From the IMG/VR virus record IMGVR_UViG_2663763232_000018: a stretch of 7,488 bases of DNA. One strand, written 5' to 3'. A program made the position numbers and the translations under genes. This DNA is from a virus (Duplodnaviria > Heunggongvirae > Uroviricota > Caudoviricetes). The notes below the pieces were generated by a model. The model did not search any database, was not told the DNA's origin, and saw nothing but the letters and a program-made list of their open reading frames with translations. Below, one piece after another: positions 2,423-7,488 of this stretch. The stretch's first letter is position 1. Each line of letters opens with the position of its first letter.

Positions 2423-2642
2423 AGGCCCATCACTGGCAAGCCTGCTTAAGCACGGGTGCCAGGTCACGCACTTCAAGAACTCACGCGGCTGGCTGGAAAC
2501 GCCGGACGGAAGATTTTTTAAACCCGAACCGGCGAAGGTTCAATTTATCAAAGGTAAAAATAAACCGTTTATTTATACCCAAAGAATAAATAAAGGCTTC
2601 CTGCTTACACTGGCTGAATTATTTAAAAAGCTAATTAAGTAA
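2412..2642 (+). CDS. Hypothetical small protein, 76 aa, basic and Lys-rich (MHDEGPSLASLLKHG...)
   Basis: ATG at 2412 is preceded by SD AAGGGGG (2398-2404). It overlaps the upstream gene by 11 nt (ATGCACGATGA). Coding sequence becomes AT-rich from about 2500. Confidence 0.55.
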   Translation: MHDEGPSLASLLKHGCQVTHFKNSRGWLETPDGRFFKPEPAKVQFIKGKNKPFIYTQRINKGFLLTLAELFKKLIK

Positions 2643-2729
2643 TTCGGTTTTAAAAAAATCAACTATGTTTTCTCCGCCTTTTTATTAAGTGGCGGCGGTT
2701 CAACTCATTCTTTTTTTGAGGAAGAGATT

Positions 2730-2942
2730 ATGACCAGACGTGATCAATATAGCTTCATTTTGCATGTTCTTTTACCTGCTATCGAAAATGAAGGCTTAAC
2801 CATTAAAACCCGCCGTGATGGTGAGTTAACCCTTTCTGCCACTGGATCAGTAACCACTAATTTTATCAGCAACCTGCGCCAGCACTGCATTGAAGAATTG
2901 CAGCGCCCTTCCATTCCTTCTTCTCCTTACGGTTATTTATAA
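2730..2942 (+). CDS. Hypothetical small protein, 70 aa (MTRRDQYSFILHVLL...)
   Basis: ATG at 2730 is preceded by SD GAGGAAGAG. It sits in the AT-rich segment after an 87-bp AT-rich intergenic gap. Confidence 0.55.
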   Translation: MTRRDQYSFILHVLLPAIENEGLTIKTRRDGELTLSATGSVTTNFISNLRQHCIEELQRPSIPSSPYGYL

Positions 2943-2957
2943 ATAGAGGTCTTTTAC

Positions 2958-3206
2958 ATGAGTAACGTAGCGAAACTTCAATTAGGTTTTTCACCGCTGA
3001 CTAAAAAAATCCAGTTGGCAAAGATGCGCGATGATGGGGAAGGGCGCCGCCTTCGCGTTGGTAGTGATCCTGGTCGTGATGTGACTAACGAAGCTGCGCA
3101 ATTAGTTTGGCAGTTGGTTATGTCTGAGGGAGGGGAAATCGGCTGGAACCTGTCGGACGGTAGCCGCATGGTTTTGAAAGCTGAGAAAGTGGGGCACGCA
3201 TCATGA
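2958..3206 (+). CDS. Hypothetical small protein, 82 aa (MSNVAKLQLGFSPLTKK...)
   Basis: ATG at 2958 follows SD-like AGAGG. Its stop overlaps the dam start as ATGA (3203-3206). Confidence 0.6.
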   Translation: MSNVAKLQLGFSPLTKKIQLAKMRDDGEGRRLRVGSDPGRDVTNEAAQLVWQLVMSEGGEIGWNLSDGSRMVLKAEKVGHAS

Positions 3207-4186
3207 GCAGCCCTATTATTCGCCCGTTCATCAAATGGGCAGGGGGTAAAACCCGTGTCCTTCCTGACCTGCTGCCGCACCTTCCTAAAGCCGACTGCCT
3301 GATCGAACCGTTCGTAGGCGGCGCATCGGTATTTCTGGCGACTGAGTACCGCCGCTATGTGCTGGCTGATATCAACCCGGATCTTATTAACCTTTATCGG
3401 GAAGTCACCCGTTACCCGGACTTAGTGATCGATGCGGCCCGCGAACTGTTCAACAGCAAGAACAGCCCGCAGGGGTACAACGAAGTCCGCGCCGCGTTCA
3501 ATAAGCAGGTATGTACGGTAAAAAGCGGTGGGTTGCGTTATGGCGTCGAAATGGCGCGCATCATGCGTGCTGCTCAATTCCTGTATCTGAACCGCCACGG
3601 TTATAACGGCTTATGCCGTTACAGCCGTAAGACCGGCTTTAACGTGCCGTTTGGCAAGTATAAGAGCGTCTACTTTCCTGAAAATGAAATCCGCCTGTTT
3701 GCCGAAAAGGCCAACGATACAAAGGCAATATTTCTTTGCGCGCCGTTCCAGCGTTCTCTACAGGTCGTCACGGGTGGCGATGTTCTCGTTTACTGCGATC
3801 CGCCTTACCTGCCTGAAAGCAAAACAGCCGATTTTACCCAATACCACACCGAACCATTCACGGAAGACAACCACCGCCAGTTAGTCCAGGCACTGCTGGA
3901 AGTTAACCGTAAGCATGGCGTGAAGGTTGTCATTTCCAACAGCGACACCGAAGCCACCCGCGCGATTTATCAGCCTTTCAAGATGCACGAAATCAGCGTG
4001 CAACGTTCCGTCAGCACTGACAAAGACAACCGCCAGAAGGCCAAAGAAGTGATCGGCGTGCTGCCTGTCTGCGACTGCTGCGGGCGTTACGGCGGCGGTT
4101 GCCCTGATTGTGGCGCCGTGATGGGTGATGCGACTTACAACGCGATGGTTGCGGCAGGCACGTTTGACGATCTGGAGGCGTTTTAA
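3203..4186 (+). CDS. dam: Dam-family N6-adenine DNA methyltransferase, 327 aa, orphan (no adjacent restriction enzyme), with Cys-rich C-terminal extension
   Basis: N-terminal KWAGGK (residues 11-16), SAM-binding-like EPFVGGASVF, and catalytic DPPY (codons 3797-3808) are seen in the translation and are hallmark motifs of Dam-type MTases. A Cys cluster CDCCGRYGGGCPDC (codons 4070-4111) lies in a C-terminal tail beyond the length of E. coli Dam. Confidence 0.85.
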   Translation: MSSPIIRPFIKWAGGKTRVLPDLLPHLPKADCLIEPFVGGASVFLATEYRRYVLADINPDLINLYREVTRYPDLVIDAARELFNSKNSPQGYNEVRAAFNKQVCTVKSGGLRYGVEMARIMRAAQFLYLNRHGYNGLCRYSRKTGFNVPFGKYKSVYFPENEIRLFAEKANDTKAIFLCAPFQRSLQVVTGGDVLVYCDPPYLPESKTADFTQYHTEPFTEDNHRQLVQALLEVNRKHGVKVVISNSDTEATRAIYQPFKMHEISVQRSVSTDKDNRQKAKEVIGVLPVCDCCGRYGGGCPDCGAVMGDATYNAMVAAGTFDDLEAF

Positions 4187-4365
4187 TGAATCTTGTAGAC
4201 GCCTGGATCGTTGAAATCATAAGCGTGAGTCGTGGCGAGATTGTGCCGTATTGGTTGGTTGAGGCGAAAGTAACAGCTTATGGAAGGGAGTCAATAACCA
4301 CAATTCTGAAGAAATCAGAAGAGGAAGCCAAAGCCGTTAAAGTAGGGGATGTAGTTCAAATATGA
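4186..4365 (+). CDS. Hypothetical small protein, 59 aa (MNLVDAWIVEIISVSRGEIVPYWLVEAKVTAYGRESITTILKKSEEEAKAVKVGDVVQI); not present in the supplied ORF track
   Basis: Hand-translated ORF exactly filling the dam-A gap. Its ATG overlaps the dam stop (TAATG at 4184-4188) and its stop overlaps the A start (ATGA at 4362-4365). It was probably omitted from the track for length. Confidence 0.5.
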   Translation: MNLVDAWIVEIISVSRGEIVPYWLVEAKVTAYGRESITTILKKSEEEAKAVKVGDVVQI

Positions 4366-6719
4366 CCACGGCAACCAGTGGCCGTCGCGCCCCTTCTCCA
4401 CCTCCACCGTATCCGGGCAGCACTGACAATGCTATCCCTTACGCTTATGGCGGGAACAAACCATACCAGCCGATTGGCGTTGATGTAGCGCCGGGGCTGG
4501 ATGGTTTCGACTATCTCACGCCGGACGGCACGCGTAAGCATATTGCGTTCAGTGAACTGGTAGCGGAGGACGAAAAGCCGGAACGCAGTAAGCTGCTGCG
4601 TCGCCGTCTGGCTTCTCTTCCGCAATATGTCCGCCGCCACTTTGCAGCGAAGCTTGATGCGCTGGATGTGAAAGACCGCAAAGCGGCAGATCACTGGCTG
4701 CTTAACACCTTTGAGCGCCACGTATTAACGCGTATTGATAGCGTGAACAGTGTTTACCAGCCTGATACTGTGATGCCCGGCATTCTGCTGCCAATTCGCG
4801 ATCAGCTTTTCCGTATGCTCTGGGCAGGGAAAAAAGAGTTAAAAAGACTGGCTTATACGCTTGCCGATATCTTTACGAGCGAGTTTATACGCGAGTCCGA
4901 TCACCAGTTGGTGCGCACCGGCGATCCTGAGTTCGCGGCGCTTTCTGGCTATGGCCGTATTGCATCGCTGGCAGTGCATCTGAAAACGCCGATCCCCGGT
5001 TGGACAGCTTATTGCAATGAAGAACTTGAAGCGGAGGACGCGTTACGCGCAGTTCTCCGTCTTGAGTCACCGCAGTGGTGGTTAAACCGCCTGCGCCGTA
5101 TCCATGCCCGGTGGCGTGAGCATTTGATGATCGCAGCGGGATACGTCCAGAAAAAATCCTCCCCATACAGTAGCGCCCCGTGCCTTACGGAATGGCTGGC
5201 CCAGAAAAAAGCTAACCGTGAATACCTCAAGGCTATGGAACTGGAAGACCAGGACACGGGCGAGCGCATTTCGCTGATCGATAAAGTCGCCGGCAGTGTT
5301 GCCAATCCGGCCAACCGTCGCCGCGAACTCATGACGAGAATGCGCGGATTTGAAGATCTGGCGAAGCTGGAAGGGCTGGCCGGTGACTTCTACACGCTGA
5401 CAGCGCCTTCCCGCTATCACGCTATGCAGCATAACGGGCGCCGTAATAACAAATACTGTGGCGCGTCGCCGCGTGAGACACAGCAATATCTTTGCAAAGT
5501 CTGGGCGAGAACCCGCGCCGCATGGAAGAGAAAAGGGATCCGCGTCTTTGGTTTCCGCGTGGTCGAACCGCACCACGATGCAACGCCACACTGGCATTTG
5601 CTTCTTTTTATGCGCCCGGAATGCGTCGAGCAGGCGCGCGAAATCTTCCGTAAATATGCCCTGAAAGAAGACGGCAACGAACCGGGAGCGCAGGAAAACC
5701 GCTTTCAGGTCGTGCCGATCGACGATGCCCACGGCAGCGCAACTGGCTACATAGCGAAATACATTTCGAAGAATATCGACGGCTTCGCGCTGGATGGTGA
5801 GAAGGACGACGAAACCGGGGAAGACCTGAAAGAAATGTCACTCCGCGTTAGCGCGTGGGCATCGCGCTGGGCTATTCGTCAGTTTCAGCAGATCGGCGGT
5901 GCGCCGGTCACGGTATATCGCGAACTTCGCCGCTTGGGCGATCGCGAACTGGTGTTACACCCTGAACTGGAAACCGCCCGGCAGGCCGCTAACGGTGGCG
6001 AATGGGATAACTACGTATTAGCCCAGGGTGGCCCGTTGGTTGAGCGCGATAAGCTGCGCATCCGTCTGAATTATGAAACCACTGAAAACGGCAACGCCTA
6101 CGGCGATAACGTCCAGCGAATCACTGGTATTTACTGCCCGATTACGGGCAATGACTCTTTGATCTTCACCCGCACCACTCAATACAAAATCGTGCCGAAG
6201 CGCCAGAGCGCTGACGGTGTGGCCGTTGACGTTGGTTTTTCAGGCGGCAACGCCGCCCCTCGGAGTTCTGTCAATAACTGTACGCGGGATCCCGCGGCAG
6301 GTGCTGACGGTGTTGAACATGCCGATCACGAAGTGGGCGAGACGGTGAATTTTGATGCGCTTTCACGGCAGGAAAAGCGAGAACTGGCACAGAGGCTAAG
6401 TGACGATGTGCGAAGTAAGCGGAAAAAACGGCCACCGGAACGGGAAGACGGGGCCGGGATATCCGTGAAAGAGCAGCAGATCAGTGAACTGCTGGCGCTG
6501 CGTGGGATTGATGCCAGCGCCGGAATGGTCAGATCGATGATGGCCGGTGCGTCAGTGGCGTGCGGCGATCTTGTTATGACAGTGCAGGATGGGCGGCTGG
6601 TATCGCGCAACCGCGCCGCGTCGGGGCTGGATAAGCTGCCGTCGCAGGTGATGGCGGCGAAGCAACAGACAAATAGTCTTATTAACCGAATGAAAAAAGC
6701 CTTTAACGGTGCGTCATAA
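4362..6719 (+). CDS. A: Rolling-circle replication initiation protein gpA (HUH endonuclease superfamily), 785 aa
   Basis: HUH motif in PHWHLLLF (codons 5589-5597); paired catalytic tyrosines in GYIAKYISKNIDG (Tyr codons 5748-5750 and 5760-5762). Other blocks (TLTAPSRYH, VVEPHHDATPHWH, AWASRWAIRQF, RTTQYKIVPK, AAPRSSVNNC) match my recollection of P2 gpA. Confidence 0.9.
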   Translation: MTTATSGRRAPSPPPPYPGSTDNAIPYAYGGNKPYQPIGVDVAPGLDGFDYLTPDGTRKHIAFSELVAEDEKPERSKLLRRRLASLPQYVRRHFAAKLDALDVKDRKAADHWLLNTFERHVLTRIDSVNSVYQPDTVMPGILLPIRDQLFRMLWAGKKELKRLAYTLADIFTSEFIRESDHQLVRTGDPEFAALSGYGRIASLAVHLKTPIPGWTAYCNEELEAEDALRAVLRLESPQWWLNRLRRIHARWREHLMIAAGYVQKKSSPYSSAPCLTEWLAQKKANREYLKAMELEDQDTGERISLIDKVAGSVANPANRRRELMTRMRGFEDLAKLEGLAGDFYTLTAPSRYHAMQHNGRRNNKYCGASPRETQQYLCKVWARTRAAWKRKGIRVFGFRVVEPHHDATPHWHLLLFMRPECVEQAREIFRKYALKEDGNEPGAQENRFQVVPIDDAHGSATGYIAKYISKNIDGFALDGEKDDETGEDLKEMSLRVSAWASRWAIRQFQQIGGAPVTVYRELRRLGDRELVLHPELETARQAANGGEWDNYVLAQGGPLVERDKLRIRLNYETTENGNAYGDNVQRITGIYCPITGNDSLIFTRTTQYKIVPKRQSADGVAVDVGFSGGNAAPRSSVNNCTRDPAAGADGVEHADHEVGETVNFDALSRQEKRELAQRLSDDVRSKRKKRPPEREDGAGISVKEQQISELLALRGIDASAGMVRSMMAGASVACGDLVMTVQDGRLVSRNRAASGLDKLPSQVMAAKQQTNSLINRMKKAFNGAS
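6258..6274 (+). other. Candidate origin-of-replication nick region inside gene A (CCTCGGAGTTCTGTCAA)
   Basis: In P2 the ori lies within the A coding region. This stretch encodes the conserved AAPRSSVNNC block and closely resembles the P2 ori nick-site sequence as I remember it (one mismatch). That memory was not verified, so the call is tentative. Confidence 0.35.
6283..6296. repeat. Perfect 14-bp palindrome CGCGGGATCCCGCG with a central GATC, inside gene A
   Basis: Self-complementarity verified base by base. It lies 9 bp downstream of the candidate ori nick sequence. Confidence 0.85.
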
Positions 6720-6771
6720 CAGCGTGCCGGGGCTTCGCTTATTCATTTTCAGAAGAAACAGGAGTGACAGC

Positions 6772-7488
6772 ATGAGCAAAATTACCAGAGAACGCGCAGC
6801 AAAAATTGCAGCAGGCGGCGGATATAACTTTGATGAGGTGGAGGAGCTGGCGCGTATCGCGCTGGCATCGCTCGAAGCGGAGGAGTCAGGGCGAAATCCC
6901 GTGCTGGCCTATGCAGACAGTTACCGCGATATGGCTAAGCAGGGTGTTGAATCTATTCCTGTATGGAGCGTAATTACCGATCTGGAAAGAAATATCGCCC
7001 CGCTATACTCCGCCCCGCCAGCGCCGGTAGTTCCGGCAGAGCTTCATCCTGATACGCTGAAACTGGTGACCGACTTCAGCTCCGCCCTGGCTGAGAAGTT
7101 GTACAAGGCTCAATTAAAATATGGCTATGACGCGGACTGGAAACAAGATGGTTGGCCAAGCCAATGCCAGGCAGACTTTCAACAGCATATAGCTAAGGGA
7201 GACCCCCGGGATGTTGCCGCTTACTGTGCATTTATGTGGTATCACGGCTGGAAAACTGAGCCAGCGCCGGTATCGCTGCCTGACGAGCAACATAGCGAAC
7301 GCTTCAACTGGACACTTGGGCAGTGGGCTGAACATGTTGGGGGTCATTACCAGGGAAATGATCCGGCAAACTATTACGAGTTCGGCTCATTCATGGCGGT
7401 CGCTGCAATGCTGTGCCAATTCGGCACCGTTCAGCAAAAAATTGGATGGAACGCCTGCCGCGCCGCCATGGTTAACGCAGGCCAGTGA
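6772..7488 (+). CDS. Hypothetical two-domain protein, 238 aa, unknown function
   Basis: ATG at 6772 has a strong SD AGGAG (6760-6764) 7 nt upstream. The track start at 6709 is a GTG overlapping the end of A. The translation shows an acidic N-terminal region and a Trp/aromatic-rich C-terminal region (KYGYDADWKQDGW, AAYCAFMWYHGW) separated by a Pro/Ala linker (APPAPVVPAELHP). Stop TGA at 7486-7488. Confidence 0.7.
   Translation: MSKITRERAAKIAAGGGYNFDEVEELARIALASLEAEESGRNPVLAYADSYRDMAKQGVESIPVWSVITDLERNIAPLYSAPPAPVVPAELHPDTLKLVTDFSSALAEKLYKAQLKYGYDADWKQDGWPSQCQADFQQHIAKGDPRDVAAYCAFMWYHGWKTEPAPVSLPDEQHSERFNWTLGQWAEHVGGHYQGNDPANYYEFGSFMAVAAMLCQFGTVQQKIGWNACRAAMVNAGQ

Follow-up and report, generated by a model that had tools for sequence, protein, structure and literature searches.

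What kind of gene does a P2-like phage carry directly behind its replication gene A: cargo aimed at other phages, or a component of its own early program? The question is raised by a 7,488-nucleotide (nt) stretch of DNA from a virus of the class Caudoviricetes (IMG/VR record IMGVR_UViG_2663763232_000018), referred to here as the window, which ends with a gene for a 238-residue protein, here the accessory gene and accessory protein. On balance, and with modest confidence, we favor the reading that a 186/P2-like E. coli prophage carries here an intact accessory gene that closes its rightward early (replication) operon directly before cos, and that the product of this gene is a four-module mosaic built on a nucleotide-directed core. 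The anatomy of the protein, its family assignment and its mode of evolution are jointly held with high confidence.

The coding sequence opens with an ATG at 6772–6774, preceded by a strong Shine-Dalgarno (SD) sequence, and closes with a TGA at 7486–7488, the final bases of the window. The open reading frame (ORF), its SD and its end at the window boundary are exactly as an earlier reading of this DNA from its letters alone (the sequence-only reading) had placed them. An alternative GTG start at 6709, which would give 259 amino acids (aa), was rejected, since the SD and the N-termini of homologs, which begin MSKITRE or MSTITRE, favor the ATG at 6772. A foreign base composition was also considered and rejected, the GC content of the gene (0.52–0.54) being that of the neighboring phage DNA. 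The acidic N-terminus, Pro/Ala linker and Trp/aromatic-rich C-terminus of the sequence-only reading agree with the composition: aa 1–76 are acidic with an isoelectric point of 4.7, the linker at aa 77–95 holds 6 prolines in 19 residues, and aa 96–238 contain 7 Trp, 8 Tyr and 7 Phe. At full length the protein has no Pfam match at E ≤ 1 and no NCBIfam match, and a PDB sequence search with the single protein gave a best E of 1.4, which is noise. Its PHROGs matches are solely to families of 'unknown function', yet the mosaic pattern is visible in them. One relative, P0001, which represents 43 member sequences, is 99% identical over the full length. A full-length AlphaFold2 model was poor (predicted local distance difference test, pLDDT, 49.6) and was left out of fold searching.

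The sequence-only reading had described a two-domain protein, a description that gives way to a finer division. A large-database search returned more than 2,690 homologs, and scoring each segment separately against the best 120 resolved four modules and four junctions, a junction segment being counted as present at ≥0.35 of its self-score. An additional Pro-rich linker, at aa 163–173, forms one of the junctions. The features of the gene are as follows.

6760..6764, + strand: Shine-Dalgarno sequence AGGAG, 7 nt upstream of the ATG, read directly from the sequence
6772..7488, + strand: whole coding sequence (238 aa and a stop codon) of the intact, mosaic gene; ORF read from the sequence
6772..6843, + strand: module A, aa 1–24, MSKITRERAAKIAAGGGYNFDEVE; rare, in 7 of the 120 best relatives
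6844..6882, + strand: junction J1, aa 25–37, ELARIALASLEAE; recombination junction common to lambdoid DUF551/EaA genes
6883..6999, + strand: module B, aa 38–76; in 25 of 120 relatives
7000..7056, + strand: junction J2, aa 77–95, PLYSAPPAPVVPAELHPDT; Pro/Ala linker into module C, in 119 of 120 relatives
7057..7257, + strand: module C, aa 96–162; three-helix, DUF5664-like, in 119 of 120 relatives
7258..7290, + strand: junction J3, aa 163–173, EPAPVSLPDEQ; second Pro-rich linker, in 100 of 120 relatives
7291..7452, + strand: module D, aa 174–227; rare, in 9 of 120 relatives, with a weak match to PHROG 11500
7453..7488, + strand: junction/terminus J4, aa 228–238, ACRAAMVNAGQ plus stop; ACRAAM motif in 97 of 120 relatives

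Across the relatives the junction peptides recur widely, and the same J4-type ending is present in P0072, P0003 and P0002. Further modules occur in relatives, with DUF551 in 16 of 115, DUF550 (PF04447, dATP/dGTP pyrophosphohydrolase) in 14, Ead/Ea22 in 3 and DUF3850/ASCH in 1. A set of 118 more distant representatives shows DUF551 (9), DUF550 (7) and Ead/Ea22 (3) as partners, together with single occurrences of an Rv2179c-like exoribonuclease, WDGH and a Lar restriction-alleviation domain. A tandem duplication of module C, considered as a hint of a pseudo-dimer because two matching stretches had been reported, was not borne out, as these failed to reappear as two domains in the phmmer parse. 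Annotated relatives are found in the lambdoid nin region, between the replication genes and NinB/E/G; one lies in a P22-like ea region, and another in Burkholderia phage BcepNY3 between the helicase and DNA polymerase genes. The gene is a four-module mosaic from the nin/ea-region accessory pool of lambdoid phages, that is, the DUF551/DUF550/Ead-Ea22/DUF3850 network, which is known already from the Ea22 variants found in lambdoid and Stx phages (PMC10834534).

The slot itself holds natural alleles that bear on how such mosaics arise. Sibling prophages of the same lineage carry, at the same position (52 base pairs (bp) past A and ~380 bp before the portal gene Q), alleles of 220 aa (P0003) and 158 aa (P0072), and alignment of the alleles with their flanks shows 100% DNA identity interrupted only by sharply bounded blocks that are replaced. 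The 220-aa allele is identical to the window gene over gene nt 1–101 and 239–717, with its left breakpoint in J1 and its right breakpoint in J2, module B being swapped for an unrelated block; the 158-aa allele is identical over nt 1–260 and 680–717, with breakpoints in J2 (left) and J4 (right) and the C-J3-D portion replaced. Donor-like sequences fit the same boundaries: gene nt 72–258 (J1 and B) are 99.5% identical to part of a DUF551 gene in the nin region of a lambdoid prophage, and nt 256–699 (C-J3-D-J4) are 100% identical to a P22-like ea-region gene whose N-terminal half is unrelated. Module D recurs in independent non-P2 contexts at 97–100% DNA identity. The ~39-nt J1 segment (gene nt ~73–111, window 6844–6882) recurs within otherwise unrelated DUF551/EaA genes in 47 of 51 matching E. 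coli genomes and in 16 phage records, mostly at 100% identity and at about 92% in the lowest case. Together, the placement of the block breakpoints within junctions and the recurrence of J1 show, as judged from aligned DNA, that the junctions behave as patches of homology for the exchange of whole modules, among phages as well as among the alleles of the slot. Such exchange fits relaxed homologous recombination between temperate phages as described in PMC3945230. The ratio of nonsynonymous to synonymous substitution (dN/dS) on the C-D block was uninformative, as independent copies differ at only 0–10 of 444 nt and simple counting is order-dependent for codons with multiple differences.

Two observations concern other copies of the gene and its surroundings. 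The metagenome-derived relative P0012 (259 aa) is the same as the window protein to about aa 146 and then continues in the +1 frame past the normal stop; the shift may be an error of sequencing or a variant that exists in nature. The window as a whole is not identical over its full length to any of the copies compared (L001–L003 and L007–L012); positions 3215–7488 are 99.7% identical to L003 and for the int-cox region the nearest copies are L007 and L009 (99.1%), and with closest copies differing along its length the prophage backbone is therefore a recombinant patchwork.

The near-constant element of the mosaic is module C. The domain as modeled spans aa 86–166 (7027–7269), and searching with it alone gave 1,869 representative clusters (50% identity) at E ≤ 1e-3. 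The non-redundant alignment has the signature KGDPRDVAAYCAFMW.HGW plus KYG, with F17, K24, Y32, W38, C47, K57, D59, D62, Y66, C67 and H73 invariant in domain numbering, and AlphaFold2 run with the family alignment yields a confident three-helix model (pLDDT 92.3). Profile-profile comparison by hhalign aligned module C with DUF5664 (PF18909) at a score of 31.6, with P 2.3e-5 and a probability of 76%; among the controls, 30 column-shuffled profiles scored at most 21.1, a reversed profile 12.4 and DUF550 11.7, and the DUF5664 profile was built from only 9 non-redundant sequences. A relationship of module C to DUF550 itself was rejected, as that score is at control level. PF18909 (dGTP_diPhyd_N) is the N-terminal domain of a dATP/dGTP diphosphohydrolase of Acinetobacter phage SH-Ab 15497, where it precedes DUF550, and the stand-alone DUF5664 protein of Arthrobacter phage Wayne converts dATP, dUTP and dGTP to deoxynucleoside monophosphates, with release of pyrophosphate; the SH-Ab 15497 fusion enzyme likewise yields deoxynucleoside monophosphate and pyrophosphate (PMC12884076). 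In relatives P0023 and P0026 module C stands ahead of DUF550, as DUF5664 does in the SH-Ab 15497 enzyme. A protein of a Caulobacter phage, annotated as an HD/PDEase domain protein, also has a module C-like fold.

Several observations weigh against this kinship. Foldseek comparison of the module C model with the PDB gave nothing below E 4, and predicted DUF5664 structures in BFVD match it weakly (template modeling score 0.42–0.51, E 6–10). Within the aligned range, module C keeps 9 of 22 DUF5664-invariant positions (F20, A25, K34, Y35, G36, W40, H56, D67 and A79). The invariant set examined comprised E22, R55, H56, E61, D65, D67, E69, H74, H77, an N-terminal KFD..K and a C-terminal DDRR; the alignment lacks in module C an equivalent of E22 and the acidic loop of about 10 residues, D.DEESG..HH, and both terminal motifs are absent. 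Searches of PDB sequences with the module C profile and with the DUF5664 profile each gave no match. The module C domain alone has no PF18909 match, the Pfam gathering score of 27 bits not being reached; 14 of 47 members of the module C family give sub-threshold PF18909 matches, all at E ≥ 0.006, while a genuine DUF5664 enzyme scores 85.9 bits. The balance of profile comparisons gives moderate support to a distant relationship between module C and DUF5664/PF18909, a deoxynucleoside triphosphate (dNTP) pyrophosphohydrolase domain of the all-alpha nucleoside triphosphate (NTP) pyrophosphatase superfamily. The 'nucleotide-hydrolase-like' impression of the sequence-only reading gains modest support from this distant relationship and falls short at the Pfam gathering score.

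The all-alpha NTP pyrophosphohydrolase superfamily (MazG, dimeric dUTPase, HisE and AF0060-like proteins) binds metal through a motif of the EXXE...EXXD type, and its active sites are assembled across subunits. Module C has an invariant D59-x-x-D62 and, at position 29, always E or Q; an EXXE is missing, and several members have A, N, G, R, Q, S or T in place of E23. On the favored reading, the accessory protein would be synthesized with the replication proteins at an early stage of lytic growth, and module C, as its conserved core, would be a nucleotide-binding or nucleotide-hydrolyzing domain of the all-alpha NTP pyrophosphatase type that acts to the phage's benefit. The ligand, bound or hydrolyzed, might be dNTPs or a related nucleotide, and the variable modules would tune partners or targets. 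A nucleotide-directed function taken by itself is a tentative proposal, which we rate somewhat below even.

The alternative that survives best, though we consider it unlikely, is that module C is a degenerate NTP pyrophosphatase-like fold serving as a protein or ligand scaffold, so that the accessory protein would be a non-catalytic regulator or adaptor that modulates host or phage processes such as replication or the lysis-lysogeny decision, as proposed for Ea22 and other proteins of the exo-xis/nin region. The loss from module C of most DUF5664-invariant acidic residues and of the acidic loop is what a scaffold would lead one to expect, and relatives include Ead/Ea22 fusions. Ea22 is itself a mosaic pro-lysogenic protein with variants that carry DUF551, and YfdS is a DUF551 protein (PMC10834534); overexpression of yfdQ-yfdR-yfdS-yfdT of CPS-53 reportedly inhibits initiation of chromosomal replication (PMC4776307). 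However, the many invariant polar or charged residues of module C (K24, Y32, W38, C47, K57, D59, D62, Y66, C67 and H73) suggest a small-ligand or active site, and the domain is recurrently fused to the nucleotide hydrolase DUF550.

A bolder form of the nucleotide-directed reading, which we regard as improbable, would place module C in the all-alpha NTP pyrophosphatase superfamily as a phage family both new and widespread, whose active site, re-tooled around invariant K, Y, W, C, H and D-x-x-D residues, would act on a nucleotide that counts in phage-host conflict, for example the dNTP pool or a nucleotide immune signal. Were this so, the mosaic genes would be beads-on-a-string counter-defense or takeover modules (compare Lar and MazZ-type partners) that diversify by cassette exchange at linker-encoded recombination junctions, and the three alleles on a nearly isogenic P2-like backbone would capture the process in the act.

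An alternative role in defense turns on where the gene lies. Its upstream neighbor is the replication gene, as the sequence-only reading had it:

4362..6719, + strand: replication gene A, upstream neighbor; Pfam Phage_GPA, E 6e-106, 'replication endonuclease' in genomic copies

The gap between the stop of A and the start of the accessory gene is 52 bp, and a consensus scan found neither a sigma-70-like promoter nor a terminator between them. Elsewhere the window has the content of a 186/P2-like early region, with an integrase, a helix-turn-helix repressor-like gene, Cox, DUF4761, Fil, DUF7446 and a Dam methylase. Carriers at 99.7–100% identity make up 3 of 5,426 complete E. coli genomes, and in each the gene is in a P2-like prophage. 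Extension downstream in these genomic copies shows ~380 bp between the stop codon and the convergent portal gene Q, with no further gene, and the accessory gene is therefore the sole cargo between A and Q. This interval contains a P2-like cos, with a hairpin and a sequence matching 15 of 19 bases of P2 cosR (GGCGAGGCGGGG...), followed by a terminator-like hairpin and then Q.

Some further details of this surrounding DNA can be recorded. A strong inverted repeat, CAGACCAGACGG...CCGCTGGTCTG, lies between the stop codon and the cos-like sequence at 12799–12833 of genomic copy L001 (82–116 nt past the window end); no run of T follows it, and it may form the end of the operon or be an element associated with cos. 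The prophage is inserted beside cpxP in 2 of the 3 carrier genomes. In the third (L002; NZ_CP173996.1, strain SZQ1) the integrase is preceded not by cpxP but by another P2-type late gene set, with genes for tail sheath, tail tube, gpD and ogr at L002 1–4400. The megablast query matched the SZQ1 chromosome at two places, which suggests tandem or multiple P2-like prophages.

The sequence-only reading had proposed anti-phage or superinfection-exclusion cargo, and the location gives that proposal its force. The gpA-gpQ interval next to cos, where the gene lies, is a documented P2 defense hotspot; ~19% of P2-like phages have only genes of unknown function there, with an antiviral role predicted for 15–32% of such proteins (PMC9122126, PMC13586616). 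Rapid allelic swapping of modules is also compatible with an arms race, so that a lysogen-expressed defense or exclusion function, possibly through nucleotide depletion, can be envisaged. However, a PADLOC search of the accessory protein gave no match at E ≤ 1, and the gene runs in the direction of A, the consensus scan showing no promoter-like site or terminator in the gap, whereas tin and old are counter-oriented with their own promoter. The family resides mainly in lambdoid early, nin or ea regions and also, among other sites, in the Burkholderia phage between helicase and DNA polymerase genes. Defense domains are absent among 233 relatives; the fusion partners include a phage-benefit function, the Lar anti-restriction domain, which is the sole conflict-related partner. 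A confident match to a P2 core or structural protein, which would likewise have counted against the proposal, was not found. A role in defense or exclusion is decidedly improbable in our estimation, and is unsupported rather than refuted.

That the gene is a pseudogene or decaying remnant is very improbable: although RefSeq, through the Prokaryotic Genome Annotation Pipeline (PGAP), marks it as 'incomplete; missing C-terminus' with only codons 1–175 in 3 of 3 complete genomes (window 6772–7296, equivalent to 12001–12525 of L001–L003), and although the gene is as rare as the carrier count indicates, the whole 238-codon frame is open behind a strong SD, the supposedly missing part (module D and ACRAAMVNAGQ) is found again, with the frame kept, in other independent proteins and phage settings, the frame is kept across exchanged blocks in all three alleles, and the cut at codon 175 coincides with the J3/D boundary, as expected had PGAP aligned this mosaic gene to a longer reference with a different downstream module, so that the call is probably an artefact of that alignment.

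Elsewhere in the window, a second variable spot of the early operon lies between fil and dam (~1970–2225 and ~2596–3215). It holds a 70-aa ORF (2730–2942) and the DUF7446 gene (2958–3206) here, and TerB and DUF3927 genes or another small ORF in sibling prophages, the stretches being unalignable between siblings. In an unrelated phage contig (L015) a DUF7446 gene lies just downstream of the mosaic gene. The Dam-type methylase (3203–4186) has a MethyltransfD12 domain at aa 12–269 and a Cys-rich C-terminal tail (CDCCGRYGGGCPDCG); it is 327 aa long, compared with 323 aa in sibling versions, and is called a pseudogene by PGAP in 2 of the 3 genomic copies (L002 and L003). By their ORF coordinates dam, a 59-aa ORF (4186–4365) and A (starting at 4362) are chained by overlapping stop and start codons.

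Taken alone, the gene is an unremarkable example of the phage accessory genes whose function is unknown. What is new is the combination of modules within a known, uncharacterized mosaic network, and a core domain that is an undescribed, widespread variant. The gene exposes a large domain family that lacks a Pfam model (~1,900 clusters at 50% identity) and is hosted by lambdoid, P2-like, T5-like, Burkholderia, Erwinia, Caulobacter and cyanobacterial phages, and the tentative tie of this family to the recently characterized DUF5664 dNTP pyrophosphohydrolases offers a concrete biochemical lead. It also corrects a RefSeq pseudogene call apparently caused by mosaicism. The 238-, 220- and 158-aa alleles in otherwise identical local DNA are a clean natural case of exchange at linker-coding junctions, including exchange between P2-like and lambdoid/P22-like phages, and constitute a ready allelic series for functional work. 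Finally, caution is warranted in reading every gene of the gpA-gpQ hotspot as defense cargo, because the orf91-type position belongs to the early operon.

Comparison with P2 makes this last point explicit. In the P2 reference, orf91 follows A on the same strand as the terminal gene of the early operon, upstream of cos, while tin and old, beyond it, are transcribed in the opposite direction from separately mapped starts adjoining cos; nothing comes after the accessory gene. The sequence-only reading had placed the gene at the tin/old locus, which holds for the gpA-gpQ interval beside cos and fails for strand: tin and old differ in having the opposite orientation, their own promoter and expression in the lysogen, and there is no homology. 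By its position directly after A and ahead of cos, its orientation, and the lack of an intervening promoter or terminator, the accessory gene is therefore the counterpart of P2 orf91, the terminal early-operon gene, rather than of tin/old, and we infer that it is likely co-transcribed with A. The two proteins have no sequence similarity, and the accessory protein has no Pfam match to the DUF3850 (DUF3850/ASCH) domain of Orf91. Yet P2 Orf91 matches, at 43% identity and E 1e-16, the N-terminal module of P0077, a relative that contains module C as well, and the orf91 position in P2-like phages therefore draws on the same module pool.

The second comparison is with the accessory proteins of the lambdoid exo-xis/nin regions (Ea22 variants, Ead/Ea22-like, DUF551 and DUF550 proteins and P22 EaA), which have modules and junctions in common with the accessory protein, in part at 99–100% DNA identity with genes annotated as DUF551 or EaA. 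Ea22 variants have the same beads-on-a-string layout (PMC10834534), and the lambdoid mosaic proteins are, like the accessory protein, products of early genes of unknown function. The differences are that the accessory gene resides in a P2/186-like rather than a lambdoid phage, and that its product has none of the Ead_Ea22, DUF551 and DUF550 Pfam domains of the network. The third is with DUF5664. Both it and module C are helical and of similar size, with the motifs KYG..W, H(I/L) and KG(D/E)..D in common, whereas the near-invariant signature KGDPRDVAAYCAFMW.HGW, with its two invariant Cys, sets module C apart from DUF5664. Both stand N-terminal to DUF550 in fusions and both are encoded among early or replication genes. 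Module C is probably a distinct family, homologous to DUF5664 at the superfamily level and lying outside PF18909.
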